Source: Cryomorphaceae bacterium
GTDB taxonomy: Bacteria > Bacteroidota > Bacteroidia > Flavobacteriales_G > Salibacteraceae
Assembly: GCA_040221375.1 (NCBI GenBank)
Contig: JAVKEP010000072.1
Location: forward strand, 6,036 to 70,035
Direction of reading: 5' to 3'
Length of the DNA: 64,000 nucleotides
Shown here: positions 3-38,510 of the stretch, piece by piece
How positions within the stretch are numbered: the stretch's first letter is position 1
How the letters are laid out: each line of letters begins with the position of its first letter
The notes under the pieces: model-generated
Told to the model about the DNA's origin: nothing
Databases searched by the model: none
What the model saw: the letters and a program-made list of their open reading frames with translations, nothing else
Translations under genes and position numbers: made by a program

Positions 3-443
3 AACCTTTCTTTTTCCAGTTTAACAATTCATTTATTAGGTTGCTTAAAAGAAGCGGTTTGGAATGAAGACTATGAATCTGCCCACTTATTAAAAATCGA
101 GATATCAACTAATATTGGATGTATCGAAACTAAGTTATTAGAAAGGGGAGCGCAATTATTAACTGATTTCGATGAAGGGTGCAACAAGTCAAACCATCTT
201 CGAGGCTTTACACCTCTGTCAAATTATCTAAGACTTCAATGGGAATACCAAGTCAAGCTCTCCAATTTTGAAATTATTCTGACAAGATTGAGACGCGAAA
301 TGAAAATCCTAAGCATTTTAGATTTAGATGAGGAAATAGATGATTCCATCTTCACCGAGCACTACTCTCACCCAGTTTTGACTTTTGATTATCTGGATTT
401 CTACTTCAGCTTACTAATACCTTCGGATCTCTCTTCCAACTGA
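3..443 (+). CDS. Hypothetical protein, C-terminal fragment (ORF enters from the left edge)
   Basis: Frame 3 is open from position 3 to the TGA at 441-443 (147 codons, ...EIDDSIFTEHYSHPVLTFDYLDFYF...). Not in the ORF track because it has no start in the window. No recognisable motifs. Confidence 0.35.
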   Translation, partial: NLSFSSLTIHLLGCLKEAVWNEDYESAHLLKIEISTNIGCIETKLLERGAQLLTDFDEGCNKSNHLRGFTPLSNYLRLQWEYQVKLSNFEIILTRLRREMKILSILDLDEEIDDSIFTEHYSHPVLTFDYLDFYFSLLIPSDLSSN

Positions 444-1038
444 TGTATTTTCTCACTTTAATCACGGTGTTCATTGAGCACTTCAAGCGACCCGCAATAT
501 CTCTTACACTTTTCCCTTTGCTCAGAAGTCCAATAATCTCTTTGCTCTTCGGTTTTTCAAGAAATTTTTTGACACTCTCATTTGATTTTTCTGGCCGCCC
601 AATTTTCCCACCATTAGCAACATAAACCTCTCGTCCAATTCTGGTGCGGTTTAACAAATTCTCTCTCTCAAGCTGATAAAGACTAGACAAACATGCGGTA
701 AGAATCCCCCATATTTCATTCTTCCTTCCATTCACCCTTGAGCAAAGGTTACCCATGGATTTAATTATTACTGTGACCTCGTTTTGATCTAGCCAATCGA
801 GAACATTGATGGTGTCAACCATATTCCTACCAATATCTCTCAATTCTTCAACGGTGATAGATGCTATCTGACCCGATTCAACCATTTGATTGAGTTTGGA
901 TGCTTCAGTCCTTTGTCTAAATGGAAGCGTACCACTCACTCCCTTATCAAATAGGGTCAAATCATAGATTTCCTTATCGGCTTGAAATCTATTTCCATGT
1001 TGTTGTAAAGTGGATGTCCGTTGATATTTTACCCTCAT
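406..1038 (-). CDS. Small serine recombinase (resolvase/invertase family)
   Basis: N-terminus MRVKYQRTSTLQQ fits the YxRVSTxxQ catalytic-serine motif. Also FDKGVSGT, LRDIGRN (DRLGR-like) and a C-terminal HTH (SVRDIAGRLKCSMNTVIKV). 210 aa. Confidence 0.85.
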   Translation of the reverse strand: MRVKYQRTSTLQQHGNRFQADKEIYDLTLFDKGVSGTLPFRQRTEASKLNQMVESGQIASITVEELRDIGRNMVDTINVLDWLDQNEVTVIIKSMGNLCSRVNGRKNEIWGILTACLSSLYQLERENLLNRTRIGREVYVANGGKIGRPEKSNESVKKFLEKPKSKEIIGLLSKGKSVRDIAGRLKCSMNTVIKVRKYISWKRDPKVLVS

Positions 1039-1042
1039 TTCA

Positions 1043-1077
1043 GTGTTGTATTTAATGTCTGAGATTTAATATAACAC
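1043..1077. promoter_or_regulatory. Imperfect 35-bp palindrome just upstream of the recombinase start (candidate res/operator site)
   Basis: GTGTTGTATTTAAT-gtctgag-ATTTAATATAACAC, with 12 of 14 arm positions complementary. Lies 5 nt from the recombinase ATG. Confidence 0.3.
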
Positions 1078-1185
1078 AGGAATACCGGTCCACCTAGGGT
1101 TTAGAGTGATTTTTTCTGTAGGTGCTGCTGTCAATTATATTTTGACTTAAATCACAACGAATCAATAATTTTAACCGTGTGGTTT

Positions 1186-2178
1186 TCAGAAGCCATTAAA
1201 AATGTCATTATACACTCTGAATTTCCATGAATCCTTTCCCCCAAAGTCAATACAATCTTGTCTTTTTAGTGAAATGGATATAGCATCGCGTTTAGTTTTG
1301 AATTTTCCTATATGAGGTCTTCCTAGGAACCAAAGTCGATTTGGGTTCTTACACGCGGAGTCAATTTTCAGTCTTACCAATTTCCCTTCGCTTGTAAAGT
1401 ATTCATGTGACAATATGAAATTGACTTTATTGAAGAGAATTGTTTGATATTCCTTAACCAACGTTGCTCTAATTTTATTTAGATCAGTTTTAGTGTATCC
1501 ATTGCTTTTCCATTTCTTGAAGTTCAATAAGGCTTCATCTGAAAGATCAATTTTCAGAATTGGTCTAATGGTATTTGAAGGGCTCATTAGAACAGAATAT
1601 ATCGAGAAGTGCTTACTAATCGCGTCAATCACTTCTTGATTGTTATCGATTGGCAGATCGATGTCTAACGCCATTAGTTGTGTGTGACTATCCATTTCAG
1701 AGCACTCGATTAAGTCACTCTTCGCGTTGAATGTTCCAAAGACAATACCCGGATTCAACTCTTTGAACAAGCTGTAAACACCCTTTTTTGCTTTCTTTTT
1801 TATGACATCAAATACGTTATTGGGTATCCCTTCAATATCTATAAAATCACCTCTTGAAATAGGATCCATTGAGTATCGGTTGATTTTGGTGAACTTCAAG
1901 AGATCTATTTCATCGCAGTTGTAGATTGAATAATGAAAAAAAGCTAAGTAACTCCAGTGTTTTTCAAGATCCTCCCAATCTTCATTAATCACAATACTTT
2001 GAGCTCTCCTTCTTAGGCTTTCAAGAGCACTTTGGTAACCAAGATTTTTTAATCCTTGAGTAAATTTTCGATCAGATTTCTCATTGTATAAATTGATAAT
2101 TTCTTTGAGAGAAATTATCTTTCTACTCAATTCTTTTTGAAAGCGAAAGTTGTTTAAGAAGGTGATTTTTTCATTCAT
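1186..2178 (-). CDS. Hypothetical protein with AEP-primase-like motifs (BT4734/VirE-N-like)
   Basis: 330 aa. Motifs ALDIDLP (DxD), MSPSNTIRPILKI and KIDSACKNPNRLWFLGRP appear in the order expected for archaeo-eukaryotic primase domains of Bacteroidota mobile elements. Motif level only. Confidence 0.45.
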   Translation of the reverse strand: MNEKITFLNNFRFQKELSRKIISLKEIINLYNEKSDRKFTQGLKNLGYQSALESLRRRAQSIVINEDWEDLEKHWSYLAFFHYSIYNCDEIDLLKFTKINRYSMDPISRGDFIDIEGIPNNVFDVIKKKAKKGVYSLFKELNPGIVFGTFNAKSDLIECSEMDSHTQLMALDIDLPIDNNQEVIDAISKHFSIYSVLMSPSNTIRPILKIDLSDEALLNFKKWKSNGYTKTDLNKIRATLVKEYQTILFNKVNFILSHEYFTSEGKLVRLKIDSACKNPNRLWFLGRPHIGKFKTKRDAISISLKRQDCIDFGGKDSWKFRVYNDIFNGF

Positions 2179-2349
2179 TATAAGGGTTATAGATTTAACT
2201 GGGAAAAAGTTTAATTTTCTTCTATTATCCTATTTCCCTCCCTAAATGATTCAAATGAAATTCCCGTAACCTTCTGTACATCAGTATTTATGGGCAATTC
2301 AATTAACAACTAAAACCCTCCCCCCCTTTAGTCGAGAACCGTCCCCAAT

Positions 2350-3576
2350 TTAAACGCTCGTGTTAAGTCCTATTTCCCTCGCACAGTTGTTCATTATATT
2401 CCTCACAATTGCTTCATTGCTTTTCTCTACTAAAAGTGCATCGTAGATATAAATGGCTGGTATGTGAAGCGCTCTAAGCTGGTTAATCACTTCGGTCATA
2501 AGCTTAGTTTCAATTCTAAATAAATCATGACTCACCTTCTTATATCCGTATACATCCTTGATTAGAACAATTTCATCAAGCATAGAAGGAAACTCACTTT
2601 GATAATATTCGAAGAGAGGACATGCTTTCATATCCTTTACCCTTTTGTTGAAGAAAGACATGTTCATGATCTTAGCCTCTTTCTTATCAATTTTCAGAAA
2701 ATTAGCTGCGTCTGTATGTGAGATTGTATTCTTATTATTTCCGTAAATGTGATTGGCTATGTTTGGGTGGAGAGTGCTATAGTCTAGCTCCACCAGCTCG
2801 GAATTATTGACTGTTAATGAAGATCTAATCCACTTGGGCATAAGCGAAAAGGAATCGTAAACTCTACCGCCACATCGCGTTGATCCAATCGTTGGAACTT
2901 TAAAGCCCCCTTTTGTGAGTCTCTCATAAAGCAGAATGTCATCTTCGATATATCTGACATTTTTCCTTTTTAGAGAATTCAATCTTGATTTATGACCCCT
3001 TTGTTTCAGGAACTTTCCTTTTGAAGTTGAATATCCACTCTTTACATGATTTTGACCAATTTCGAGGAGTTCCTTTTTGGATTTGAGTTGGATGTTAGGG
3101 TAGACTTCTTCTATTAAGAAGGATGAAATTGGGTTTTCTAGAGCATGGGCAGTTACGTCTTCATGTCTTTGAAGGAGCTTCTTACGGATTTTCTCATTAA
3201 CAATTTGATATTCTGTAATTCCCGATGTGACATACTCATCACGCATCTCATATTTATATGACTGTTTTCCTGGGATGTAATATTCGAAAACATTGATTAC
3301 ACCTTTCCGGATTAATAGCTCTCTTAATTTATTATAAGATGCGCCTACGTTATCTCTTAAATAGATTGATTTAAGTGAAATCCAAGGATCCTCTTTGCGA
3401 CACTTTTTGAAAAAGCTTCTGTTTAGCTCCGAACAGAACACTAAAACAAGCTCCTTAGCTCTGTCCGTGTTTGGACTTATGCTTTTTAATTCTTGCTCCG
3501 AAAACGCGCTAAGCTCGTTGAGTAATTTTCGATTTACCCAAAGTATACACGGGTCTTTTGCTAGTTGTAAATTCAA
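2350..3576 (-). CDS. Miniature family-A-polymerase-like protein (TTG start)
   Basis: 408 aa. The C-terminal half is collinear with PolA motifs: GGRVYDSF, LVELDYSTLHPNI (motif A), ISHTDAANFL, KKEAKIMNMSFFN (motif B), IYIYDALLVE (motif C). No exonuclease domains. Confidence 0.55.
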   Translation of the reverse strand: MNLQLAKDPCILWVNRKLLNELSAFSEQELKSISPNTDRAKELVLVFCSELNRSFFKKCRKEDPWISLKSIYLRDNVGASYNKLRELLIRKGVINVFEYYIPGKQSYKYEMRDEYVTSGITEYQIVNEKIRKKLLQRHEDVTAHALENPISSFLIEEVYPNIQLKSKKELLEIGQNHVKSGYSTSKGKFLKQRGHKSRLNSLKRKNVRYIEDDILLYERLTKGGFKVPTIGSTRCGGRVYDSFSLMPKWIRSSLTVNNSELVELDYSTLHPNIANHIYGNNKNTISHTDAANFLKIDKKEAKIMNMSFFNKRVKDMKACPLFEYYQSEFPSMLDEIVLIKDVYGYKKVSHDLFRIETKLMTEVINQLRALHIPAIYIYDALLVEKSNEAIVRNIMNNCAREIGLNTSV

Positions 3577-3577
3577 T

Positions 3578-3621
3578 TATCATATCCATGATTTTTTAGT
3601 CCACATCAAGTGGATATGATA
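3578..3621. promoter_or_regulatory. 11-bp perfect inverted repeat with 22-bp spacer, 2 nt upstream of the polymerase-like gene start
   Basis: TATCATATCCA (3578-3588) and TGGATATGATA (3611-3621) are exact reverse complements. The spacer holds a small CCAC-atcaa-GTGG hairpin. Not statistically compelling on its own. Confidence 0.25.
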
Positions 3622-3725
3622 TATATTGAAAAAACAGATTTTGTTTATCTAGAGCCCCCTGATCTATGTTACCATAGGTTGAGTACTTCTTAGACACATG
3701 TCTCTTCTGAGTGTAACTTTACGGA

Positions 3726-4124
3726 ATGGAAACCCTTAAACCAATTCTTATCGGTTTTTTAACCGAGTATTATATTCCTATATCGATCTATCTATTAACC
3801 TCTTTTGTACTAATTGTTTACTTAGTCCTAAGAAGAAATTCTAAACATGATAAAGCCAGAAGATTAGCAAAATCGAGTATAAATCTTTGGTTATACAAGA
3901 GAGAAGATGAATATGAAAAGGATGATCAATATTCAGTTCTAGTTGAGGAAAATGAAACTTTAAAAACAAAGCTAGATCACTCAAAAAAACAAGTAAGAAA
4001 CATCTCCTTCTTTTTCATTGTAACGGTGCTCGCAATGATCATTGTCTCTTGGTTTAACAATTCGATACGAGTCACTAAAAAAGGCGATAAATCGGCTTTA
4101 GTAAATGATGAAGAGAATTCATGA
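3726..4124 (+). CDS. Hypothetical membrane protein with two predicted TM helices flanking a coiled-coil segment
   Basis: 132 aa. Hydrophobic stretches are ISIYLLTSFVLIVYLVL and FFFIVTVLAMIIVSWF; the charged segment between them is EDEYEKDDQYSVLVEENETLKTKLD. Confidence 0.5.
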   Translation: METLKPILIGFLTEYYIPISIYLLTSFVLIVYLVLRRNSKHDKARRLAKSSINLWLYKREDEYEKDDQYSVLVEENETLKTKLDHSKKQVRNISFFFIVTVLAMIIVSWFNNSIRVTKKGDKSALVNDEENS

Positions 4125-4180
4125 ATGTTTGAAGATTCACTTGAGCTGTTGTTCTAATCAATGGATTTTAATTAGAACTA

Positions 4181-4954
4181 TTATCTTTTAAAAAACTTGA
4201 CCACCGTTCCGTCTACTTGAATAAAGTACGCTCCCTTAGAAATTTCGTCCAAATTCAGTTCTCCACTTGAATATCCTCTCTTTACAACCTGACCATTTAG
4301 ATTAATTATTGAATACTCCACATTTTGAGGTGTGTTAAGAGTTCCGCTAGTTGGGTTTGGAAATACTATGAAGCCATGTGTTTCAATAGTTTCAATTGAT
4401 TGTGGATAATCCAATGTGATATATACTGTTGTGTTTACTGTAGTATCATACTCAACATCGTCATGAGTTATTGAGATCGAGTAGTTAAACCTACCCATAT
4501 TAGATGAAATGAAATTGATAATATCATTTGAATTTTGATTAAGAGTAGTCTCAAAATTTCCATTAAATGGTGCGTTATTAAACTCGTTATTTTCCTTCCA
4601 CAATAAAGTATCGGAACTATTAACATTAACCATAACATTTCCAGTATTAGTAGTAGCCAATCTCCAAGCTCGAAGACTAACAGTACTATTATCATATGAT
4701 ACTGTGTGTGAAGCCGAAACTACTGGATTGGAAGCATCACTTTGTAGGTGAGCAGAATCAATCGATAGATCTGTAATTTCAGTTACAGTAGAGTCTACAA
4801 GCGTTTCTACAACAGTTGTAGTGTCAATTTCCACTAGGGTACTACCAGTTGGACGATTTGTGGTTGTGTCGCCATTAAAGACATACACTGTGTCTTGCGA
4901 ATAGACTAAAAAATTTAATCCAATCAATAGAATACTCATTAAACATCTGATCAT
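4181..4954 (-). CDS. Secreted protein with a T9SS C-terminal sorting domain
   Basis: N-terminal signal peptide (MSILLIGLNFLVYSQ). C-terminus FPNPTSGTLNT...IINLNGQVVKRG...ISKGAYFIQV is typical of Por/T9SS CTDs. Confidence 0.7.
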   Translation of the reverse strand: MIRCLMSILLIGLNFLVYSQDTVYVFNGDTTTNRPTGSTLVEIDTTTVVETLVDSTVTEITDLSIDSAHLQSDASNPVVSASHTVSYDNSTVSLRAWRLATTNTGNVMVNVNSSDTLLWKENNEFNNAPFNGNFETTLNQNSNDIINFISSNMGRFNYSISITHDDVEYDTTVNTTVYITLDYPQSIETIETHGFIVFPNPTSGTLNTPQNVEYSIINLNGQVVKRGYSSGELNLDEISKGAYFIQVDGTVVKFFKR

Positions 4955-5052
4955 AATAGTCTAGGTTTGATAGTATCAAATGTAATACTAAACTACTTCA
5001 TGTAGTACTATAAGGTTACAGCCTAATGCCGAGTTCCCATGACATTTGAGAT

Positions 5053-5301
5053 GTGGCGGAACTTTCCAATAAAGAAATTAATAAAATCAAAATTGATGTA
5101 CCGATTCTAATCGGAAATAACATCAGAAATCTCCGCATGGAAAAGGGTCTATCTCAGACTGAATTGGCGGATAGAATTCTTAGCGATAGACAATACCTGT
5201 ATAAAATAGAAACTGCCAAGGTTGGTGTTACAATTACCAAATTAACGATGATCGCTCGTGCATTGGATGTTCCTGTATCGCGTCTGGTTTATGGAGTTTA
5301 G
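5053..5301 (+). CDS. XRE-family helix-turn-helix transcriptional regulator (GTG start)
   Basis: 82 aa. IGNNIRNLRMEKGLSQTELADRI...IARALDV fits the Cro/C1-type HTH pattern. Confidence 0.8.
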   Translation: MAELSNKEINKIKIDVPILIGNNIRNLRMEKGLSQTELADRILSDRQYLYKIETAKVGVTITKLTMIARALDVPVSRLVYGV

Positions 5302-5312
5302 TACAAGCTTGA

Positions 5313-6428
5313 CTAAACAAAGACTTTAACAGAGCCGCTCCAAACTTCCCCGTTACCCCAAACTAATTTCAATCGTAGAGGAATCCTGTTATTCTCTTTT
5401 GCGATTGATTCTACCTCTACTTCTTCTATGCGATTAATAAAACTCAAGGCTGGTTTCTCAGCATTGTCAACAAAAAAATCAGGATAAGGAATTGACACTA
5501 ACCTTGTGATTTCAATTTTCATCATTCGATTAAGCAATTCAGAATTGTCTTTAAACTTATTATAGTATTGGGAAAAGTATGAGCCTACCAAGGGAGCGTG
5601 GGAATAGTCTCCATGCTTTGTTCCTAAAAGACTGGTAATATTCTGTTTCGCCATGTCTACTCCTCTGATTATTTTAATATCCCCATTTTCTATTATAATA
5701 TCTCCATCATCTCCAAGGGCAATGTCCCCACCAAGACCATTTGGATCTATTCTTAATTGCTTTTCCTCAATCAATGTTTCAATTTGATATTTCCCACCTT
5801 CATTACTCCATATAAATTCACTTATTATTCGACCATCTCCTTGTGACTCTACAACTATGTAATTGTCTTGTGTTTTTGATGTTTTAAGGACTGAAAACTC
5901 TCTCAATTCTTCAATTGATCCAACAATAAACTGACCAACTTCAAAATACCATCGATTATTAGTTGCTGATTTCCAAATACCCTCGAAAATGAGTCTTTGA
6001 CCTAGACTAATCAAGGTGTAAGACAAGTCATAGTCTGCTTTCAATTCTACTAATTGACTATAAATGTTGCGTTCAGCGTTGTGTTTCCATTGTTTCAATG
6101 TTGCCGAGGAATAATTCAAATAATCTGTATCGATCATCCGCGCATGATGTCGACACATCCAAATTCCATTATCAATTGATTTTCGCTCATCGTTGGTCAT
6201 GCTTGGATCGTATCTAGGTCCACCTTTAGAAGCTGCGTTTATATGCGCTGCTTCTCCAAGATTTTGAACAGACTTTGAATCCTCTGTCCCTGGTCCACAA
6301 GTAATCCGTTTACACCCAGAATAGGAACACCTATACGCCACTCTAAGAGCCAGTTTGGTTTTGGTATCCTTGCTAAAATTATCGCGCATCATGTATTCCT
6401 TTCGCCTGAATCGATTCGAATTTATCAC
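5313..6428 (-). CDS. HNH nuclease fused to an uncharacterised middle region and a gp25/W-like C-terminal domain
   Basis: 371 aa. HNH signature: CSYSGC..C, GEAAHINAASKGGPRYD, NGIWMCRHHARMID. C-terminus: GDIALGDDGDIIIENGDIKIIRGVDMAKQNITSLLGTKHGDYSHAPLVGSYF. Confidence 0.7.
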   Translation of the reverse strand: MINSNRFRRKEYMMRDNFSKDTKTKLALRVAYRCSYSGCKRITCGPGTEDSKSVQNLGEAAHINAASKGGPRYDPSMTNDERKSIDNGIWMCRHHARMIDTDYLNYSSATLKQWKHNAERNIYSQLVELKADYDLSYTLISLGQRLIFEGIWKSATNNRWYFEVGQFIVGSIEELREFSVLKTSKTQDNYIVVESQGDGRIISEFIWSNEGGKYQIETLIEEKQLRIDPNGLGGDIALGDDGDIIIENGDIKIIRGVDMAKQNITSLLGTKHGDYSHAPLVGSYFSQYYNKFKDNSELLNRMMKIEITRLVSIPYPDFFVDNAEKPALSFINRIEEVEVESIAKENNRIPLRLKLVWGNGEVWSGSVKVFV

Positions 6429-6493
6429 TTATTTATTGAGGATTATAAATCCTTGTCTAGTAGTTATTACTTTCGAAAGACAACACTCTTGCC

Positions 6494-6892
6494 ATGACAA
6501 CAGAAGAAGCATTTAACAGGAAAATCTCAAGGTTTTTACGTGACGAGCCAGAATCGAGCGCGTCTCACACAATTCGAAAAATCCTAGATAATGTTCCTTA
6601 TTCTGGGTCGTATATGTTCAAAATTGAAGAGTTCGCCTACAGTTTAGGACTAGGATTTCATCTACGAGAAATTGAAATAAGTAAAGGCAAAACCAGATTC
6701 ATTCCTTGTTTCAAATACTATCCTGAAAACGTGTTAAATGAAACTCCGCGAACGGAGGATTTGATTGGTCAGTTCATGCCAATGACGAAAATCGATGCCT
6801 ATTCATTTGTAGCTAAAGAACTCGTCTATCGCTTAATGAGAGTTGAAAACCTCGATCAGTATTTGACTAAAATGGAAGAATCTCCGATCTAG
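6494..6892 (+). CDS. Hypothetical protein, divergent from the HNH gene across a 65-bp gap
   Basis: 132-aa ORF with no recognisable motifs. Its position suggests co-regulation with 5313-6428. Confidence 0.5.
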   Translation: MTTEEAFNRKISRFLRDEPESSASHTIRKILDNVPYSGSYMFKIEEFAYSLGLGFHLREIEISKGKTRFIPCFKYYPENVLNETPRTEDLIGQFMPMTKIDAYSFVAKELVYRLMRVENLDQYLTKMEESPI

Positions 6893-7207
6893 ATTAGCTT
6901 GAATTTAGATTTTATCTTGTGACCCTGAAAGAGTGATTCGTAAAATAGGCTTATTCAAAGGATCTCTCAAGCCAAGCGTTACTGTGCTAGAGAAAAAAAC
7001 GTATTATGGGGTTAGCTGAAATATTAGAATAGTATCCCATACTATTTTTTGTAAGAGAAGGTAGACGTTAGTTCAGAAACGCAATTAGATCAAATTTTTA
7101 GTGATCACTTAGCTTTAAATCAATTTAAATAGTGTATTCCAAGGCAGGATCTACCGTTAGTAAATGTCGAGTGTATTATTTTCATTGTATTGATTAACGA
7201 ACTGCTT

Positions 7208-9124
7208 CTAAAATTTCATTCCTTGAATTCTTACCGCATTAAAAATGGCTAAAAGTGCGACCCCCACATCAGCAAAAACTGCCTCCCACATAGTTGCAAC
7301 CCCACCAGCTCCCAAAACCAGCACAATCAGTTTTACTCCAAAAGCTAATCCAATGTTTTGCCAAACAATTTGTTTGGTGACCTTACCTATTTTGATAGCT
7401 GTGGCAATTTTAGACGGGTGATCAGTTTGTATAACCACATCAGCCGTTTCAATGGCTGCATCACTTCCCAGTCCACCCATTGCCATTCCTACATCGGCAA
7501 TCGTAATAACCGGAGCATCGTTTACGCCATCTCCAATAAAAGCAACTAAACGCCCTTCGCTTTTCAGCCGTTCTACTTCTTTCACTTTGTCTTCCGGCAA
7601 CAATCCTCCATAGGCTTTATCCAGTCCCAATTGATTGGCTATCTTTTGTACGACAGCCTGCTTGTCTCCTGAGAGCATTATGACCTCTTTAATTTTCGCT
7701 TGATACAAGGCTTTTATGGCAACTTCTGCATCATCTTTCAGCGTATCGGCAATGGTAATGTAACCGGCAAACTTACCGTTGGCAGCTACTAATACAGTCG
7801 TATCGGTTAACATATTAAGTTGCTTATCAAAATCCACATTGAATTTATCGAGCAGTTTTCCATTTCCTGCCAACACTTCATTATTGTTCACTCTTCCCTT
7901 TAATCCATGCCCGGATATTTCTTCTACCTCTGTAACTGAAACTTCTTTGTAAGCCTCTCCGACATATTCGACAATGGCTTGTGCTATGGGATGAGTGGAG
8001 TTCACCTCCAACGCTGCTACCATTTTTACAAACTCTGTTTTGTCCAATTCTTTTGAAACCACATCCTGCACTTCAAAAATGCCTTTGGTGAGGGTTCCAG
8101 TTTTGTCCATCACTACAGTATCTACTTTAGTAATTTGGTCAAGAAAATTAGAGCCTTTGAACAGAATCCCGTTTCGGGATGCTGCTCCGATACCTCCAAA
8201 GTATCCCAGTGGAATAGAAACGACTAATGCACACGGACAAGAAATAACCAAAAAAACGAGTGCCCTGTATAGCCAGTCGATAAAGACATAAGCATCTACA
8301 AAAAAGTATGGCAGAAAAGTTAATGCCACCGCCAGAAAAACAACAATGGGTGTATATACTTTAGCAAAACTGGTGATGAATCGCTGTGTTTTTGCTTTTC
8401 TTCCAGTGGCTTCTTGTACCAGTTTCAGAATTTTAGAAAGCTTGGTATCTTCATATTTACTGGTAACTTTTATCTCTGCCAACGTATTCAAGTTGACCAT
8501 ACCAGCCAACACCGTATCGCCTTTATTCTTGTCGTCTGGTACTGATTCACCAGTAAGTGCTGCGGTATTAAAAGCTGCATGTTCAGTAAGCAATTCTCCA
8601 TCCAATGCCACCTTTTCACCCGATTTGATCTGAATGACCTGCCCAATTTCAACTTCTTTCGGATGTTTTATGAAAGATTCTCCATTATCTATTACTGTAA
8701 CTTGTTCCACCTGCAATTTGAGTAGGGATTCGATTGATCGTTTTGCCCTATTCACGGCTGCTTCCTGAAACAATTCACCTATAGTGTAGAATAGCATCAC
8801 GGCCACTGCCTCGGCATATTCACCAATGGCAAACGCACCAATAGTGGCAAGGCTCATCAGGAAGAATTCATTGAACAGGTCGACTGTGAATAGTTTTTTC
8901 AATGCCTTCCATACCACCATTCTACCAACAGCGAAGTAGGCAATACCATACATCAATAACTGCAATTCCTGGTTGAATGTTTTCGGGCTTACTTGCTCCA
9001 GAATAATACCGGTTAGCAGAAATGAGAAGCTTAAGACTGCCGGAAAATAAGGGCGGAACTTTTCTAACAGAGAAGTTTCACCCTGTTGATTACTCAATAC
9101 TTCATTAGAAGAACTTTTACTCAT
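7208..9124 (-). CDS. Heavy-metal translocating P1B-type ATPase (Zn/Cd/Pb-type signature)
   Basis: DKTGTLT, GDGVNDAP, TM6 CPCALVVSIP (CPCx4SxP), NIGLAFGVK (Nx7K) and ADVGV (DxG). No N-terminal CxxC/HMA domain. Confidence 0.95.
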   Translation of the reverse strand: MSKSSSNEVLSNQQGETSLLEKFRPYFPAVLSFSFLLTGIILEQVSPKTFNQELQLLMYGIAYFAVGRMVVWKALKKLFTVDLFNEFFLMSLATIGAFAIGEYAEAVAVMLFYTIGELFQEAAVNRAKRSIESLLKLQVEQVTVIDNGESFIKHPKEVEIGQVIQIKSGEKVALDGELLTEHAAFNTAALTGESVPDDKNKGDTVLAGMVNLNTLAEIKVTSKYEDTKLSKILKLVQEATGRKAKTQRFITSFAKVYTPIVVFLAVALTFLPYFFVDAYVFIDWLYRALVFLVISCPCALVVSIPLGYFGGIGAASRNGILFKGSNFLDQITKVDTVVMDKTGTLTKGIFEVQDVVSKELDKTEFVKMVAALEVNSTHPIAQAIVEYVGEAYKEVSVTEVEEISGHGLKGRVNNNEVLAGNGKLLDKFNVDFDKQLNMLTDTTVLVAANGKFAGYITIADTLKDDAEVAIKALYQAKIKEVIMLSGDKQAVVQKIANQLGLDKAYGGLLPEDKVKEVERLKSEGRLVAFIGDGVNDAPVITIADVGMAMGGLGSDAAIETADVVIQTDHPSKIATAIKIGKVTKQIVWQNIGLAFGVKLIVLVLGAGGVATMWEAVFADVGVALLAIFNAVRIQGMKF

Positions 9125-9134
9125 AACTCTTTAA

Positions 9135-9734
9135 TTATATCCATCTTCTAACAGCATTCATATATTCAACATAGGTGTTTCCATGTGTCTTCTTTAGGTA
9201 TTCCTCTTCAAGCCTAACCTGTATCTGAAGTATTACGAATGTCAGAAGCATTATTGCAAAGCTCAGCGCATTCGGAATGATTAAGAACGTTCCGATGTAT
9301 GAAACAATGACACCGAGAAAAATCGGATTACGTGAAACCCTAAATAGTCCTGTCTTCTTTAACTCAGTTTTCTCCTCATAGTTAATTCCAATTCTCCATG
9401 AATTTGACATTTGATTCTGGGCGATTATTATCCAAACGAAGGAGATAAATGCCAATGCAAACCCTAAGTGTTGTGCCCAACCAAAATCCAAATACCAAAA
9501 GGGTAACAGAAACTTATACTGGCTCGGAAAAAATGAATAGAATACGATTGAAGTCCAAGTGCCAAATATCATGAGCCTATATACCCGCCCGCAAAAGTCA
9601 TGTGGACTTGCTGTATTGCCAAAAACGTAAGGTTTAACCCCAGTTTTTTTCCATTGGATCCAACTCTGGATAACAAATACTTGAAGAATATAGACCAACG
9701 TGAATATTGGTAATGCAATTTGATAAAACGTCAC
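9135..9734 (-). CDS. Isoprenylcysteine carboxyl methyltransferase-family membrane protein (CzcN/NccN-like), GTG start
   Basis: 199 aa, multi-TM. SRNPIFLGVIVSYIG...EEEYLKKTHGNTYVEYMNAVRRWI is typical of the ICMT/PEMT family. Confidence 0.75.
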   Translation of the reverse strand: MTFYQIALPIFTLVYILQVFVIQSWIQWKKTGVKPYVFGNTASPHDFCGRVYRLMIFGTWTSIVFYSFFPSQYKFLLPFWYLDFGWAQHLGFALAFISFVWIIIAQNQMSNSWRIGINYEEKTELKKTGLFRVSRNPIFLGVIVSYIGTFLIIPNALSFAIMLLTFVILQIQVRLEEEYLKKTHGNTYVEYMNAVRRWI

Positions 9735-9746
9735 GATTTGAATTTT

Positions 9747-10964
9747 TTAGTGCTCATGTTCTGCTTCGCCTTTTTTCATCTCAGCGAGTAAGTAATAGGC
9801 ATTATTCCAAGCCACAGTTGCTTTTTCTGGCAATGCATTGAGGAGTTTTATCTCAATCCAACCATCATCTCTGGTTCCAGCAATGACCTCTATGGGCTCA
9901 AATGCCCATTCTATTTTACCGTTGTCATTTTCATTTTTGGCAGTGAATATGAAATACTTCTCTCCTTCACGAACAACAGCAGCTTCCGGTAAAGCGTAGC
10001 TGTGATTGTCATTTATCATTATACGTCCTCTTACATACATACCTGGAATGAGTAATCCTGTTTTGTTTTCGATTTCTGCATGGATGTGAATTGCCTTTGG
10101 ATCTTGCTCGAATGCTTTCCCAACTGAATAAATGGTAGCCTCCAATTCCTGTTTAGGCAAGGATTCAATGGTAAACCGGATTTTCTGACCTTTTTCAACT
10201 TTGTGCATGTCCTTTTCAAACACCATTAAGTCTGCATGAATATGGTCGATGTTGACAATCTCAAACATTTCAGTTTGAGGCTCTACAAACTGTCCTGTTT
10301 TTACTTCCACCAAACGGATGTGTCCGTCAATAGGACTGATAACAGGAACCTGTTCATAGATTTCACCTTGTCTGATTTTGTCAAGACCTAATCCCATCAT
10401 TTTCAATTGAGCTTCATAACCATTTACCATACTTTTCATTGATAGGTAGTCTGCCCGTGTTTTCTGAAACTCCTTTCCTGATCCTACCTTTTCTTCATAC
10501 AGCTTCTTTTGTCGCTGATATTCTTGTTCCAGGTATTGAAGCTGGTTCCAGCTATTCGCATAATCAGTTTGTAGTTTAATTAGGTTGGGATGGCTTAGGT
10601 AGGCCAATACTTGTCCTTTACTAACCTTGTCTCCTTCAATGACTTTAATAAGAGTAACATTGGAACCTACAATAGCCGTAACCGCTGCCTCGTTTTGTGG
10701 TGGCACCTCCAGTTGACCGTTTGCTTCTACGTAGGAGCTGATGTTACGGAAGGGAAGGGTATCAGATTTCATACCCAACGATTGATATTGTTGCTCCGAA
10801 AAATGAACTTCTTCTTCATGTCCTTCTCCGTGTTCATGGTGTTCAGATTCTGCACCGCTTTCATGTTCACCGTGTCCTTCTTCATTATGCCCGGAATCTT
10901 CACAAGCAACCACAAATAAACTTGCTGCAAATAGCAGTATGTATGTTTTTATATTCGATTTCAT
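9747..10964 (-). CDS. RND efflux periplasmic adaptor (CzcB-like) with a His-rich N-terminal segment
   Basis: 405 aa. Lipoprotein-like signal (FVVAC), then HNEEGHGEHESGAESEHHEHGEGHEEEVH, then the coiled-coil/barrel pattern of membrane fusion proteins. Confidence 0.9.
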   Translation of the reverse strand: MKSNIKTYILLFAASLFVVACEDSGHNEEGHGEHESGAESEHHEHGEGHEEEVHFSEQQYQSLGMKSDTLPFRNISSYVEANGQLEVPPQNEAAVTAIVGSNVTLIKVIEGDKVSKGQVLAYLSHPNLIKLQTDYANSWNQLQYLEQEYQRQKKLYEEKVGSGKEFQKTRADYLSMKSMVNGYEAQLKMMGLGLDKIRQGEIYEQVPVISPIDGHIRLVEVKTGQFVEPQTEMFEIVNIDHIHADLMVFEKDMHKVEKGQKIRFTIESLPKQELEATIYSVGKAFEQDPKAIHIHAEIENKTGLLIPGMYVRGRIMINDNHSYALPEAAVVREGEKYFIFTAKNENDNGKIEWAFEPIEVIAGTRDDGWIEIKLLNALPEKATVAWNNAYYLLAEMKKGEAEHEH

Positions 10965-10981
10965 AATATTCAGTTTTTTAG

Positions 10982-13900
10982 TTATTGACCAATGAGATAT
11001 TCCAGGTTAATAATAGCCTGATTGTACCCGTTTAATGTATTGAGGTAAGTGAGTTTTAGTTCCGGACCTTGATTTAGGTTTTGGAAGTATTCGACATAAT
11101 TAATGGCTCCATTCTCAAAGCTCTTTTGAGCATTACCAATGACCAAGTTCGCCTGTGGAACTGCCTTATCCCTGTAATAGCTTAAACTACCCCTGTATTT
11201 TAATACTTCCTGCAACTGCTGTTCATACTGTCCTTGAAGCACGTTATGGTAGTAGTCAGCATTGGTTTGAGCCATTTGTTCTTTTAGTTTGGCTGATTTT
11301 ATACTCGCCTTGTAAGAACCATAAAACAAAGGGATGGATATACCAGCCTGAACACCCGAAAACCGAGTGGATCCTCCAGCAATATCTCCATTTACAGTAG
11401 GGTTACCTATTTGGGATTGATTAAAATAACCAACCGATAAATCAGGAAGCATCTTAGCTGATTGTACTGCTTTTTCTGCGTTGGTAATGTCAATCTGCTG
11501 TTGTGCATAGGCTAACATTGGGTTACTACTCAATTGTGTAGAATCCTGTATATTGGCCAGAACTCTTTCATCCAAAGGAGCTGGAACAAAACTTAAACCG
11601 GTTGTATCGTTCAATAGTATCCGAAGTTGTTTCTCCTGAATACTTATGTCAGATGCTATCAGTTTAAGTTCATTTTGTATTTCCATCATCATGGTTTCTG
11701 CTGTTGCCTTTTCCAAATATGAGGTAGCCTCGGTTTCATACCGGATAGTGGCTGCATGAAGGAACCTACCATAAATGGTGTCCTGGTATAAGAGTAGCTT
11801 TTCCTTTTCTTGGAGATAAACTAAATCATACCAAGTCTGCCTGATGTCTCGTTTCAAGCCATTTTCAGTGATCGCCAATTGCATTTGGCTTCCTTCTGTT
11901 TTTTCTATCGCCAGTTTTCGTTGGGAAGTATAAACAGTCGGAAATTCAATGCTCTGATTCAGGTCAAAGGCAAAGTCATTTTCAAAACTGTTGTACTGAC
12001 CGTATTGAAAACCAACGCTTGTTTTCCCCAGATTAAAAGCCTCTTTTTCACCTTGTTGTTGTAACTCTATAATGGTTTTAGCTACCTGCACATTCCCATT
12101 ATTGGATAGTCCTATTTTGACTACTTCATCCAATGTGGTAATGGTTTTGCCATTGACATCCTGGGCTTTGAGTTCACCAGAAGAAAAAAGAGAAATTCCA
12201 CCTATCAACAATATAACAGTCAATGCTTTTGGCATAACCACTTTTACACTTCTATTTTCTACCCAACGGTAGAGTATAGGCAACACGAATAGTGTTAAGA
12301 GTGTAGCAGATATCATTCCGCCAATAACTACTGTGGCTAATGGTTGTTGAACTTCAGCTCCGGCAGAGGTAGATATTGCCATCGGTAAAAAGCCCAAGAC
12401 ATCGGTTAATGCTGTGAGTAGGATAGGTCTAATCCTCCTTCTTGCCCCTTGCTTGATCCGTTCGTTCAAATCTGACATGCCCTCTTCTTTAAGCTCGTTC
12501 CATCCACTTATCAAGACGAGACCATTCAATACAGCAACGCCAAATAGCACGATAAATCCTACACCTGCAGATATACTAAAAGGCATATCTCGTAGCCATA
12601 AGGAGAAGACCCCTCCAATGGCTGCCAGTGGGATGGCCATATATATCATCATGGATTGTTTGAATGATTTTAATGCAAAAAATATGAGTAGGAATATTAA
12701 CCCTAATGCAATAGGAACGACTATTTGTAATCGCTTACTTGCTCTTTCAAGATTCTCAAATGCACCACCGTAACGTATATAATAACCGGGTGGAAGATCG
12801 AGCTGTGCATCAAGCTTTTGTTGAATTTCTTCCACCAACGACTTTATATCACGACCTCTCACATTGATACCCACGTAAGTCCTTCGATTTGTATTATCCC
12901 GACTTATTTGCATTGGCCCTGATTGATAGCTAATATCTGCAACTTCCTTTAATGGTATTTGCGCACCACTGGCCAGGTTGACGTAAAGGTTTTTAAGATC
13001 ATCTATACTTTTGCGGTGCTGTTCATCCAAACGAACAACTAAGTCAAAGCGTTTTTCACCTTCAAATATGACTCCCGCCTTTCCCCCTGCAAACGCAGAT
13101 TGAATAACCGTGTTCAAGTCTTCTACATGTAAGCCATATTGAGCCAATTTGTACCTGTTGTATTTCACGGTCATTTGTGGAAGTCCACTGGTTGCTTCCA
13201 CTTTCATGTCGGCTACCCCTTTTACAGTAGAGATGATTTTACCCATTTCCTCTGCCTTGACCGCAAGCATATTCAAGTCTTCGCCAAAAAGTTTCACGGC
13301 TATATCTTCCCTTACACCAGTAATCAATTCATTGAACCGCATTTCGATGGGTTGGGTAAATTCATAATTAATTCCAGGAACCTTCTCGACTGCTTCTTTC
13401 ATTTTATCTATCAACTCCTCTTTGCTGTCAGCTGAAACCCATTCATCTTGCGGTTTGAGAATAACAAAAACATCTGCTATATCCATTGGCATGGGATCGG
13501 TGGGTACATCTGCAACTCCAATTCGACTGAGTATATGTATGACTTCCGGAAAATTGGATTTTACAACTTGCTCAATTTTTGTCGTTGTCTCGATGGTTTC
13601 CGTTAGAGAACTTCCCGGTTTCAGGATGGCGTGAAATGCTATATCACCTTCATCCAGTTGAGGCACAAATTCGCCTCCCAATCGCGAGAAAGTAAATACT
13701 GCTAACCCCAGGAGAACTATTGCCGAACCCAATATCCATTTGGCTCTTTTCAGCGCTTTTCCGAGCAGGGGTTCGTATAAATCTTCCAACCAAATAACGA
13801 AACGATCACCCCAGGACGTCTTATTCTTATTACCCATTCGCATAAACCAGGCTGACATCATGGGAACATAGGTCAAGCAGAGAATCATAACACCTATCAT

Positions 13901-15352
13901 GGCGAACATGAAAGTAAGTGCCATTGGCTTGAACATTTTGCCTTCAACTCCCTCTAATGCCAGTATTGGAATAAATACTATCAGGATGATTAACTGACCG
14001 AAAAAAGCGGAGTTCATCATTTTACTAGACGATCCGTAAGCTACATCATCCCGTACTTTGGAAGTAATATTTTGCTTTTTAAGTACTTTGTCATGCAGGA
14101 GAAATACGGTGCTTTCAACTATTATTACTGCACCATCTATGATGATTCCAAAGTCAATAGCTCCTAAACTCATTAGGTTTGCCCACACTCCGAATACATT
14201 CATCAGAATAAAAGCAAAGAGTAAGGATAGTGGAATCGTAGAGGCCACAATTAAACCACCTCTCCAATTACCAAGTAAGAAAACCAATACAAAAATGACA
14301 ATCAATGCCCCTTCCATTAAATTTTGGCTAACCGTACCAGTAGTTTTTGCTATTAATGCACTTCTATCTAGGAATGGTTCAATGCTTACACCTTCGGGTA
14401 ATGATTTTTGAATATCTATGATTCGTTCTTTTACCGCTGCGATTACATTATTGGAGTTGGCTCCGTTTAGCATGAGGATCATTCCACCAACAGCTTCTCC
14501 TTTTCCGTCCTTAGTAAAAGAACCATATTTGACAGCTTTTCCAAATTGGACTTTTGCCACATCCTTAATGGTAATAGGCAAGCCATTTATGTTTGTAATG
14601 ACAATATTTTCGATGTCCTGAATACTCCGCGCTAACCCTTCGCCCCGAATAAAATTGGCGTAGTGGTCTTTTTCAATGTAAGCTCCACCAGTATTTTGAT
14701 TGTTCTTTTCAAGGGCAATGAAAATATCAGTAATGGTCAGTCCGATAGCTTTAAGTTCATCAGGATTAACGGCTACTTCATACTGCTTTACATCACCACC
14801 AAAAGCATTGACTTCTACTACACCAGCGACCATTGCCATTTGCCTTCGTACTATCCAATCTTGCATAGTACGCAGGTCGGATGAAGAATACTGGTCTGTG
14901 TAAGCCGAATCTACTTCTAAGGTGTATTGGTATATTTCTCCTAATCCGGTAGATATTGGCCCCATGGCCGGCTCCCCGAACCCTTTAGGTATTTCTTCTT
15001 TTACCTCCGTGAGCTTTTCGGCTACAAGTTGCCTTGGCAAATATGTTCCCATGTCGTCTTCAAAAACGATAGTAACAACGGATAATCCGAATCGGGAAAC
15101 AGATCGAATTTCCTTTACTCCTGGTAAGTTGGCCATTGCCACTTCAACTGGGTAGGTGACAAATTGCTCAATATCCTCCGTCCCTAAACTGGGTGCTTGA
15201 GTTATAACCTGTACCTGGTTATTCGTAATATCCGGAACGGCATCAAGCGGAACCTGGCTGGCACTCCATAACCCCCCAACAATAAGGGCAACGGTAAGCA
15301 AGCCAATAATGAGCTTGTTCTTTATTGAGAATAATATTATTTGATTAATCAT
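10982..15352 (-). CDS. CzcA/CusA-family heavy-metal RND permease fused in frame to a TolC/CzcC-like outer-membrane factor
   Basis: 1456 aa in one uninterrupted frame. The RND part is aa 1 to ~1035. At aa 1040 (nt 12235-12233) comes the signal-peptide-like MPKALTVILLIGGISLFSSGELKAQ, followed by ~390 aa of OMF-like sequence. Confidence 0.9.
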   Translation of the reverse strand: MINQIILFSIKNKLIIGLLTVALIVGGLWSASQVPLDAVPDITNNQVQVITQAPSLGTEDIEQFVTYPVEVAMANLPGVKEIRSVSRFGLSVVTIVFEDDMGTYLPRQLVAEKLTEVKEEIPKGFGEPAMGPISTGLGEIYQYTLEVDSAYTDQYSSSDLRTMQDWIVRRQMAMVAGVVEVNAFGGDVKQYEVAVNPDELKAIGLTITDIFIALEKNNQNTGGAYIEKDHYANFIRGEGLARSIQDIENIVITNINGLPITIKDVAKVQFGKAVKYGSFTKDGKGEAVGGMILMLNGANSNNVIAAVKERIIDIQKSLPEGVSIEPFLDRSALIAKTTGTVSQNLMEGALIVIFVLVFLLGNWRGGLIVASTIPLSLLFAFILMNVFGVWANLMSLGAIDFGIIIDGAVIIVESTVFLLHDKVLKKQNITSKVRDDVAYGSSSKMMNSAFFGQLIILIVFIPILALEGVEGKMFKPMALTFMFAMIGVMILCLTYVPMMSAWFMRMGNKNKTSWGDRFVIWLEDLYEPLLGKALKRAKWILGSAIVLLGLAVFTFSRLGGEFVPQLDEGDIAFHAILKPGSSLTETIETTTKIEQVVKSNFPEVIHILSRIGVADVPTDPMPMDIADVFVILKPQDEWVSADSKEELIDKMKEAVEKVPGINYEFTQPIEMRFNELITGVREDIAVKLFGEDLNMLAVKAEEMGKIISTVKGVADMKVEATSGLPQMTVKYNRYKLAQYGLHVEDLNTVIQSAFAGGKAGVIFEGEKRFDLVVRLDEQHRKSIDDLKNLYVNLASGAQIPLKEVADISYQSGPMQISRDNTNRRTYVGINVRGRDIKSLVEEIQQKLDAQLDLPPGYYIRYGGAFENLERASKRLQIVVPIALGLIFLLIFFALKSFKQSMMIYMAIPLAAIGGVFSLWLRDMPFSISAGVGFIVLFGVAVLNGLVLISGWNELKEEGMSDLNERIKQGARRRIRPILLTALTDVLGFLPMAISTSAGAEVQQPLATVVIGGMISATLLTLFVLPILYRWVENRSVKVVMPKALTVILLIGGISLFSSGELKAQDVNGKTITTLDEVVKIGLSNNGNVQVAKTIIELQQQGEKEAFNLGKTSVGFQYGQYNSFENDFAFDLNQSIEFPTVYTSQRKLAIEKTEGSQMQLAITENGLKRDIRQTWYDLVYLQEKEKLLLYQDTIYGRFLHAATIRYETEATSYLEKATAETMMMEIQNELKLIASDISIQEKQLRILLNDTTGLSFVPAPLDERVLANIQDSTQLSSNPMLAYAQQQIDITNAEKAVQSAKMLPDLSVGYFNQSQIGNPTVNGDIAGGSTRFSGVQAGISIPLFYGSYKASIKSAKLKEQMAQTNADYYHNVLQGQYEQQLQEVLKYRGSLSYYRDKAVPQANLVIGNAQKSFENGAINYVEYFQNLNQGPELKLTYLNTLNGYNQAIINLEYLIGQ

Positions 15353-15455
15353 ATTGATTTAATTTCTTGTTAAAATGAATATAGGATTGCCTCTCCGGGG
15401 AATCCGAAAAAGGGAATATGAATACCTGCCCGATTAAATTATCGGGCACAAACTC

Positions 15456-15944
15456 TTAGCAAGAAAGGGATGGTGGTCCCCGGTGTGGGGAATCTCCTAT
15501 CGGTGGTGATAGGCAGACAGTAGCAACTTCACTACTAAATTCGGAGAGAGCCTTGTTGGAATCTGTAAAACCAAAAACCGTAAGTAATATTGATACAAGC
15601 TTGGCATTGGTAAGTCGTATATCAACGTTATCATTTGTTTTTGAAAGAAGATAATGTTGCAAGTTGCAATCCTGATACGGATGCTCCATGTCACCTAATA
15701 AGCATACCACTAAATCGTATACGCCACCATCCAAATGATCATTATGAACGATATCCTCATGGTCAATATGCTTATCATCAAAAGCATGCTGATGATGTTC
15801 ATGATGGTGATGTGGATTCCCCTCATGAGCAGCTACTTGGTGTTCAATATTGTTGGCTTCACAATGGGGAATAAGGTAATGTGCAAACCCTAATGAGTAG
15901 GTAAGTAATAAAAGTAACGATATGAGTGCTCTTTTAATTTGCAT
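15456..15944 (-). CDS. Secreted histidine-rich protein (putative periplasmic metal binder)
   Basis: Signal peptide, then AAHEGNPHHHHEHHQHAFDDKHIDHEDIVHNDH. First structural gene after the regulators in the metal operon. Confidence 0.6.
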   Translation of the reverse strand: MQIKRALISLLLLLTYSLGFAHYLIPHCEANNIEHQVAAHEGNPHHHHEHHQHAFDDKHIDHEDIVHNDHLDGGVYDLVVCLLGDMEHPYQDCNLQHYLLSKTNDNVDIRLTNAKLVSILLTVFGFTDSNKALSEFSSEVATVCLSPPIGDSPHRGPPSLSC

Positions 15945-15993
15945 TTAAGGACAAATAAAACTAATGTTTTCGTGCAATGGTATTGCAAAGCTA

Positions 15994-18371: not shown

Positions 18372-18372
18372 A

Positions 18373-18813: not shown

Positions 18814-18820
18814 ACAATGG

Positions 18821-22173: not shown

Positions 22174-22186
22174 ACTGAGAGTGTTG

Positions 22187-38484: not shown

Positions 38485-38510
38485 AAGATCTCTGTTTAGT
38501 TAGGTTGCAA

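Follow-up and report, generated by a model that had tools for sequence, protein, structure and literature searches.

Among the mobile genetic elements of bacteria are some that encode their own minimal polymerases. The TV-Pols are proteins of 400-600 aa that belong to the family-A/T7-like polymerases, lack nuclease domains and share an arginine in a hairpin as well as two aspartates in the palm (PMC2579912; Iyer, Abhiman & Aravind 2008). Members of this class have been recognized in Bacteroidetes, including Psychroflexus and Polaribacter, and a subset that carries an extra N-terminal domain has gamma-delta resolvases, lambda-type integrases or transposases as neighbors, in parts of the genome where restriction-modification genes abound; it has been proposed that the TV-Pols serve as the prim-pols of replicative mobile elements, and an element of ~4 kb in Brucella consists of only three genes, i.e. 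a TV-Pol, a resolvase and one further gene (PMC2579912). For the current report we analyzed a three-gene array at the left end of a 64,000-nt stretch of DNA (hereafter "the window") from the metagenome-assembled genome of a marine Cryomorphaceae bacterium (assembly GCA_040221375.1, contig JAVKEP010000072.1, positions 6,036 to 70,035). All three genes lie on the minus strand: gene A (2350-3576; 408 aa, TTG start) encodes a minimal polymerase-like protein with the fold of family-A polymerases and T7 RNA polymerase, gene B (1186-2178; 330 aa) a member of a very rare family with motifs like those of the archaeo-eukaryotic primases (AEPs), and gene C (406-1038; 210 aa) a small serine recombinase. 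We consider it somewhat more likely than not (roughly 0.55) that the three genes form the core by which a TV-Pol-type integrative element of the Bacteroidota replicates and recombines, situated in a low-GC (guanine plus cytosine) island of at least 22 kb that is inserted at a tRNA(CAT) gene.

Three other groups of systems bear on the interpretation of this locus. In the integrative element SCCmec, the TV-Pol-class polymerase CcPol requires a partner protein, MP, in order to prime (PMC7581432), and CcPol together with MP is experimentally a primase that is encoded beside serine recombinases (PMC7581432, PMC10061031). The divPolA2 proteins of barbaviruses and related phages are ~430 aa long and combine a PolA palm with an unrelated N-terminal globular domain and no exonuclease, and their structural matches go to PolA and mitochondrial RNA polymerase alike (PMC11348598). 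The PrimPol-PV1 primases are found on tRNA-integrated elements that carry tyrosine or serine recombinases, and six of their seven families have been reported as absent from Bacteroidetes, where only RepE/RepS occurs (PMC5862659, Kazlauskas 2018).

The layout of the array is exactly as the original prediction had described it, with gaps of 171 nt between A and B (2179-2349) and 147 nt between B and C (1039-1185), and all three open reading frames (ORFs) are intact and full length. The relationship of A to polymerases is best seen in its predicted structure. An AlphaFold (AF2) model of the protein, built with the family alignment (predicted local distance difference test, pLDDT, 88.8; predicted template modeling score, pTM, 0.84), was compared by Foldseek to the structures of the PDB and found to match most closely the apicoplast family-A DNA polymerase 9qun (apPol; E 8.5e-4, probability 1.0); the next matches were the yeast and human mitochondrial RNA polymerases and T7 RNA polymerase, and the N-terminal part of the model matched winged-helix regulators. 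The protein thus described would consist of a winged-helix-like N-terminal region and of a palm and fingers at approximately residues 225-408; it is without an exonuclease domain, and a Pfam scan of its 408 aa detected no match to a nuclease domain. Among predicted viral structures (BFVD), the best matches to the A model are phage proteins of 400-450 aa, some of which are annotated as DNA polymerase I; phage proteins with a PolA annotation match it at E-values down to 1e-14, the "DNA polymerase" of Rheinheimera phage Barba31A, a phage of the barbavirus group from which divPolA2 was described (PMC11348598), does so at 5.6e-9, and the canonical phage PolA proteins and T7-like RNA polymerases rank lower. 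The sole informative match in the sequence libraries was to phrog_4756 (E 2e-13), a family with no known function; a tblastn search of the plasmid and phage collections with A returned no match, and the PADLOC library nothing informative.

The residues that the A family has conserved are consistent with this fold. No variation is seen among 102 homologues at R238, R251, D265, H270, P271, N272 and H287; K302 and D379 are retained in 101 and 100 of them, respectively, the exceptions being gaps in the alignment. In the model, R238 (within GGRVYDS) lies in a predicted hairpin at ~229-240 that precedes D265, which in turn is located at the end of strand 259-265, and D379 occupies a turn between strands 374-377 and 380-384; as modeled, the placement of the two aspartates is the palm geometry of the family-A/T7-like polymerase superfamily. 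Taken by description, the A family fits the TV-Pols in everything except the literal RxxxK motif of the fingers, which is absent from the family and reduced to the single invariant K302, the position four residues upstream being variable (K, S or V). Like the TV-Pols, A is minimal and without nuclease domains, has the invariant hairpin arginine, the two palm aspartates and an extra N-terminal domain, and has relatives in Psychroflexus and Polaribacter. Unlike the N-terminal domain of the TV-Pols (TV-PolN), which is predicted to be all-helical (PMC2579912), that of A is winged-helix-like.

A resemblance to both DNA and RNA polymerases leaves room for the alternative that A is a single-subunit RNA polymerase that transcribes the genes of the element, in which case B alone would be the primase or initiator of replication. 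The mitochondrial and T7 RNA polymerases fit the A model about as well as the DNA polymerases do (TMq 0.38-0.47), and the position of the steric-gate glutamate of Pol I, five residues past the motif A aspartate, corresponds to an invariant histidine in the A family when DYSQIE is aligned by eye. The same ambiguity has been noted for the structurally related divPolA2 (PMC11348598), which A resembles in size, in the possession of an N-terminal domain and in the lack of an exonuclease, although the two share only ~12-15% sequence identity and divPolA2 is encoded in the 80-85-kb genomes of lytic phages that also have a regular PolB, with variable neighbors and no reported association with recombinases (PMC11348598). 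We nevertheless consider a transcriptional role for A improbable. The top PDB match and most of the annotated viral matches are DNA polymerases, and the TV-Pol-class enzyme that has been tested, CcPol, is a DNA polymerase/primase (PMC7581432). Furthermore, the neighborhood of A is one of recombinases and replication-type genes rather than a promoter-bearing set of genes, and most A-family loci are without a B-like primase, so that A must suffice for any replication role that the module might have.

The distribution of A-related genes bears directly on the nature of the element. Homologues of A number 17 in a collection of 5.8 billion proteins, and searches of species-representative genomes and of viral contigs added relatives at 80 loci and on 19 contigs, respectively; nearly all of the genomes belong to Flavobacterium, other Flavobacteriia or Chitinophagaceae. 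When the ORFs located within 6 kb of 106 A-family genes were clustered, the recurrent neighbors included serine recombinases (28 loci), tyrosine integrases (two clusters of 25 and 9 loci, ~34 together), small HTH_3-like regulators (22 of the 106 loci, the window with its ORF at 5053-5301 being one of them) and type I restriction-modification clusters (~12 loci), with methylases recurring as well. The association with serine recombinases, tyrosine integrases and type I restriction-modification genes is another likeness to the TV-Pols. On viral contigs, the A homologues are accompanied by terminase and portal genes. The A family marks mobile elements in Bacteroidota.

Small recombinases of the type encoded by gene C are adjacent to A-family genes at about nine loci besides the window (L017, L018, L021, L025, L026, L034/L035, L044 and L070), so that the original expectation of co-occurrence in other genomes is borne out for the A-C type of pairing. 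In these loci the C-type genes encode proteins of ~203-215 aa and lie 1-3 kb upstream of A in divergent orientation, and five of the loci lie directly beside tRNA(CAT) genes. The type of element is cleanly exemplified by L026 of Flavobacterium sp. PLA-1-15, where a 37-nt direct repeat of the 3' part of a tRNA-Met gene bounds ~15 kb (3224-18342); this element contains an A-family gene, a small serine recombinase of the C type and, next to the tRNA gene, a tyrosine integrase. Three kinds of tRNA(CAT) gene are abutted by A-family elements among the loci compared, i.e. an initiator-like one (L018, L021 and L025), the elongator tRNA-Met (L017 and L026) and a third type in the window. As a separate observation, on the contig of an Antarcticibacterium metagenome-assembled genome that carries the loci L043 and L044 (CAZWSP010000003.1, 54,773 bp), a 13.7-kb stretch with an A-family gene as well as serine recombinases recurs at 100% identity with an offset of 27,336 bp, about half the length of the contig. 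Either a tandem duplication or the double assembly of a circular unit of ~27.3 kb could account for this; the unit also encodes a histidine kinase, a LytTR regulator and a SIR2-like gene.

Gene C itself was correctly recognized in the original prediction as a serine recombinase. Its product matches the Pfam Resolvase domain at E 2.2e-12 (47.7 bits, cut-off 23.3) and has the nucleophile motif Y5-x-R7-x-S9, with the catalytic serine in YQRTSTLQQ; a C-terminal helix-turn-helix domain is suggested by a match to HTH_7 (E 7e-4) that at 20.0 bits falls below the cut-off of 23.8 bits. Together with a match to the "DNA invertase" family phrog_125 (E 5e-18) and 31-34% identity to the A-adjacent small recombinases of L017, L018, L025, L026 and L044, these features identify the predicted protein as a small serine recombinase of the resolvase/invertase type and not as a large serine integrase. 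The proposal that C makes the module integrative is doubtful on comparative grounds: because seven of the eight C-type loci inspected also contain a tyrosine integrase or a large serine recombinase, C is more likely to be a resolvase than the integrase of the element.

The family of B is exceedingly small. When 1.84 billion representative proteins were searched exhaustively with HMMER, only 4 relatives emerged, and a profile search of the collection of 5.8 billion proteins yielded a family of nine members including the window protein; 13 proteins were found in all. No Pfam domain was detected in any member of the family, and the B domain is without a sequence match in Pfam, NCBIfam, PHROG, PADLOC or the PDB. 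What the members have in common are the motifs ALDIDxP (D172 and D174), SPSxxxRPI (R205) and NRxW (R281 and W283) and the aspartate D273. The three aspartates are invariant in the eight members that were aligned and map to predicted strands (168-170 and 266-269) or to their ends, and R281 and W283, which are likewise invariant, occur in NR(L/F/V/A)W(Y/F) 8 residues past D273. Assigned by position and spacing, these motifs would follow the order and spacing of AEP motifs I and III and of the arginine of motif IV. The AlphaFold (AF2) model of B (pLDDT 78.9) finds mostly AEPs among its top fold matches, including the LigD PolDom, Prim-PolC, CAPP, a herpesvirus helicase-primase and PriS, with the S-2L PrimPol at rank 22, but none of these matches is significant.

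The genomic context of the B homologues supports a role in replication. In two relatives (P0021 and P0022) the B domain is N-terminal to a Walker-A/P-loop region; that of P0022 has a match in the helicase portion of the "DNA primase" family phrog_1156 (E 1.3e-4), and the contig that encodes P0022 is that of a phage, with genes for a terminase and a portal. A Pif1/RecD-like helicase is encoded downstream of the B homologue at L113, and a large serine recombinase lies 1.5 kb from that at L108. Together, the motifs, the fold matches below significance and the fusions to a P-loop region lend weak support to the identification of B as an AEP-like primase. Side by side with these observations, the B homologues of three marine contigs (L106, L108 and L116; 317-318 aa) are flanked upstream by a conserved 182-aa UvrD_C-like fragment and downstream by a conserved 90-aa ORF, and the flanking ORFs are 81-89% identical between contigs, which suggests a small conserved cassette.

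An adjacency of A and B has been found in one element independent of the window. There, an A homologue (P0002) adjoins a B homologue (P0023) in divergent orientation, and the pair is present on contigs from two different samples that are 98.3% identical in their DNA. P0002 and the A protein of the window are both short forms of ~408 aa, P0002 being the nearest short form, and the two are sisters in a neighbor-joining tree of 102 family members; the proteins of the two A-B elements are only 30-37% identical. Since only 13 B-family proteins are found, and since the two adjacencies are separated by this degree of protein divergence, chance cannot explain why A lies beside B in two elements that are independent and highly diverged. 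Within one small clade of the A family, the two genes therefore make up a module. No A homologues were found near the other B loci, and a 5.1-kb contig carrying A and B (L001) shows no terminal overlap, so that it cannot be called circular. The co-occurrence of A and B distinguishes the array from the TV-Pol elements as they have been described, in which TV-Pol and AEP prim-pol domains are considered to displace each other (PMC2579912).

The DNA in which the array resides has the properties of an acquired island. The composition of the window changes in a step at ~22 kb, from 32-42% GC at positions 1-22185 to 45-53% to the right, and the step falls exactly where a tRNA(CAT) gene on the minus strand (22186-22260; detected by ARAGORN and Rfam) has its 3' end; to the right of this gene, housekeeping genes follow. 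The 3' end of the tRNA(CAT) gene is probably the integration site of this low-GC foreign island, which is cut by the left edge of the window. The cargo at 7208-20035, as recognized by Pfam matches, is a metal-handling cluster with efflux and regulator genes. It encodes a P-type ATPase, an RND (resistance-nodulation-division) pump of 1456 aa that carries a fused outer-membrane factor domain, an HlyD adaptor and an ICMT/PEMT-like methyltransferase, along with regulators of the Fur and DtxR types, a Rieske protein and a di-haem oxidoreductase. A protein sorted by the type IX secretion system is also encoded in the island. Closer to the array are a gene for a small regulator of the Cro/CI type (5053-5301, plus strand; Pfam HTH_3, E 1e-12) and an HNH effector-like gene (5313-6428; 371 aa), the N-terminus of whose product matches HNH defense effectors in PADLOC (PDC-M68A at E 3e-26, CBASS endonuclease effectors and SduA) and whose C-terminal part has a weak likeness to baseplate and sheath-initiator domains; as judged from these matches, the two are a candidate anti-phage gene pair. 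The statement that no helicase, relaxase, capsid or tyrosine integrase is visible has been upheld and can be extended: the ORFs scanned at 1-22 kb, which included part of the small ORFs at 20-22 kb, yielded none of these, nor a gene for a terminase, a portal or a tail.

The immediate flanks of the array contain a few further features. An inverted repeat adjoins the start codon of A (3578-3621), as had been noted originally, and consists of perfect 11-bp arms (3578-3588, TATCATATCCA, and 3611-3621, TGGATATGATA; 100% complementary) around a 22-nt spacer. Only four perfect inverted repeats with arms of at least 11 bp and a loop of no more than 40 nt exist in the 64-kb window, for which reason the repeat is rated as uncommon, though not extraordinary. 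Inverted repeats are weakly enriched upstream of A homologues, where the mean best arm is 7.9 bp as compared to 6.95 bp in shuffled sequences, and the repeat of the window might serve as an operator or an origin. A TCCAT half-site possibly common to the region of this repeat and to L001 was too weak to be used. In the host part of the window there are two more perfect inverted repeats with arms of 12-14 bp and short loops (38509-38543 and 62981-63018). An exact 13-nt repeat (TCCTATTTCCCTC) is present both in the A-B gap (2228-2240) and inside the 3' end of A (2368-2380), 140 nt apart, and may be due to chance. The convergent ORF that had been noticed at the window edge lies in frame +3 of the plus strand; truncated at the left edge, it can be read from base 3 over 146 codons to its stop at 443 and shares 38 nt with the 3' end of C. 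It has no match in Pfam or PADLOC. Rfam detected no RNA family in the intergenic gaps of the array, no repeats flank the three genes, and a scan for sigma-70 promoters was at chance level, the sigma-70 model being unsuited to the promoters of Bacteroidota.

From the folds, invariant residues, gene neighborhoods and island context that are observed, we infer the enzymatic activities, the function of an origin, the excision of the element and the division of labor between A and B. The array would occupy the far end of the island that was inserted at the 3' end of the tRNA(CAT) gene. Following excision, A would recognize the origin of the element, which may be the inverted repeat that precedes gene A, and would start or extend DNA synthesis on the excised circle, as proposed for the TV-Pols and shown for CcPol-MP. 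To our knowledge, CcPol-MP of SCCmec is the only TV-Pol-class enzyme that has been studied biochemically. B would provide priming or assist in it, such that A and B would act as a primase-polymerase pair, and since no helicase is present, bulk synthesis would be left to the replisome of the host. C would resolve multimers of the replicating circle and would not be engaged in integration, for which the element would be expected to rely on a tyrosine or large serine recombinase that is encoded outside the window or has been lost.

SCCmec shows a likeness to this scheme as well as several differences. In both cases an integrative element uses a polymerase domain of the A-family type beside serine recombinases. 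The partner MP, however, is a small OB-fold protein that binds single-stranded DNA, whereas the neighbor of A is the 330-aa AEP-like B and not a small beta-rich protein; a Cch/MCM-like helicase is always present in SCCmec, whereas none was found among the ORFs scanned in the island; the Ccr recombinases are large serine integrases, whereas C is of the small resolvase type; and the hosts are Bacillota rather than Bacteroidota. A more specific version of the scheme, in which A and B would constitute a two-protein primase-polymerase of a kind not recognized before, is rather improbable. In this version B, as a member of an AEP clade that is new and devoid of the motif II histidine, would make the primers, and A would extend them while tethered to the origin through its winged helix. 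If it were true, a small clade of Bacteroidota elements would possess a helicase-less, self-priming start of replication, and B would take the part that MP plays for CcPol in SCCmec, by an independent route to priming by a family-A polymerase.

Several observations weigh against the view that the array is a functioning replication and recombination core, and they concern all three genes as well as their setting. With respect to A, no match was obtained in Pfam or NCBIfam at E-values up to 1, DNA_pol_A included, and none to PDB sequences with either a single sequence or a profile; the alignment by hhalign of the A profile with E. coli Pol I (residues 520-928, Klenow), T7 RNA polymerase and T7 DNA polymerase was not significant; and the global template modeling (TM) scores of A to solved polymerases are low (0.38-0.47). 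Because the sequence-profile comparisons were not significant, the polymerase call for A is based on the fold and the pattern of residues, and it is at the level of the predicted fold that the polymerase likeness of A is supported, the match to 9qun standing and a match to a Pfam or PDB sequence profile being absent. For the same reason, strings resembling DYS (motif A) and YxFDAL (motif C), which had been picked out in A by eye, were set aside and are not used as evidence. No sequence link ties A to a named TV-Pol: the sole reference candidate compared was MAP_030 of phage Ma-LMM01, chosen for its adjoining IS605-type transposases and equated with a published TV-Pol by assumption, and neither HMMER nor hhalign found a significant match to it, the comparison being otherwise by description. 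With respect to B, the model has no significant Foldseek match in the PDB (best E 0.077, probability not exceeding 0.38), and the histidine of AEP motif II (sxH) is missing from the family, which has SPSxxxRPI with the invariant R205 in its place. The loss of this histidine is known in PrimPol-PV1 families (PMC5862659) and is a likeness to them, although B has no sequence match or significant structural match to any of those families. The primase assignment of the original prediction thus retains the invariant DxD, the later aspartate, the arginine followed by a hydrophobic residue and the fusions to P-loop regions in its favor, next to fold matches that are below significance.

The association of the three genes is subject to similar reservations. 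The trio of A, B and C was found only in the window, and none of the other 103 A-family loci has a B homologue, even by a permissive search with a hidden Markov model, which means that B is not a general partner of A. The tRNA 3' end is without a second copy anywhere in the window, and so the island, for which no att (attachment) repeat can be named, must continue leftward; neither an integrase nor a helicase was found in the window among the ORFs scanned. Residues ~65-71 of C read LRDIGRN, where relatives have (L/I/V)DRLGRN and nearly all of the 24 related recombinases that were aligned xDRL(G/A/S)R. The corresponding stretch of gamma-delta resolvase reads LDRLGRD, with D67 and R68 as the conserved pair. 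Among the relatives of C, variants of the DRLGR motif exist in L021 (CRLGR), L036 (DRWTR) and L086 (SRFSR), and the swapped Asp-Arg pair of C may be a catalytic defect or an unusual variant. In A, the window copy has N305 and M306 within the KxEHLSFFNK motif, at positions where 99 of 102 homologues have H and 100 of 102 have L, respectively. On account of these departures at nearly invariant positions in two of the three proteins, selection on the window copy may have been relaxed, and the copy may be decaying.

Such signs could be extended to the reading that the array is altogether a decayed remnant, a chance juxtaposition in an old composite island in which no working module exists and C is a stray invertase or resolvase. 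The RD for DR of C, the N305/M306 of A and the lack of an integrase, helicase or att repeat in the window would all be accommodated, as would the separation of the genes by 147-171 nt and a gene order that differs from that of the related loci, in which the C-type gene is divergent from A and upstream of it. It is unlikely, in our estimation, that this is the whole explanation, as the three ORFs have remained intact and full length, nearly all of the other invariant residues checked in A and all of those in B have been retained, and the adjacency of so rare a gene as B to A in two independent, diverged elements is not chance. The remaining alternative assigns the array, as a replication module, to a prophage remnant or a phage satellite (a phage-parasitizing island) rather than to a self-sufficient integrative element. 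It draws on the A homologues that share viral contigs with terminase and portal genes, on the match to phrog_4756, on the B domain within a primase-helicase-like protein of a phage contig, on an HTH_3 regulator and HNH effector-like gene that are typical of phage-related islands, and on the known existence of marine satellites with both serine and tyrosine recombinases (PMC9618062), but is of low probability in view of the cargo of metal efflux and regulator genes, the lack of capsid, terminase, portal or tail genes among the ORFs scanned at 1-22 kb and the absence of virion genes from most genomic A-family loci.

Returning to the array as the core of a TV-Pol-type integrative element, we can specify what in it is new. 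The original prediction had contrasted the locus with casposons and pipolins and presented the combination of a family-A-like polymerase with an AEP-like primase and a small serine recombinase as a different one. The likeness to those elements is that of an integrative element with its own polymerase, while the fold is of family A rather than family B, no PolB or Cas1 domain was found in any scanned ORF, and self-synthesis of the entire element is not indicated for a 408-aa protein without thumb or exonuclease. The claim of novelty does not hold for the pairing of a family-A-like polymerase with a small serine recombinase, which has been in the literature since the description of the TV-Pol elements in 2008 (PMC2579912), nor for the more general association of polymerase and serine recombinases, which is found in SCCmec (PMC7581432, PMC10061031). 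New are the presence of an AEP-like gene beside a TV-Pol-type gene and the B family itself, for which we found no earlier description.

For the annotation of Bacteroidota genomes, these results provide a working function for two families of "hypothetical proteins", and they advise caution in that a small serine recombinase beside a polymerase-like gene need not be the integrase of the element. Widespread in Flavobacteriia and Chitinophagia, the A family is known from more than 100 loci and is a marker of islands inserted at tRNA genes, whose cargo includes metal-efflux genes and candidate defense genes. Inasmuch as published work treats TV-Pol and AEP domains as interchangeable, the side-by-side pair of A and B represents a natural experiment on the roles of priming and extension in the replication of such elements.

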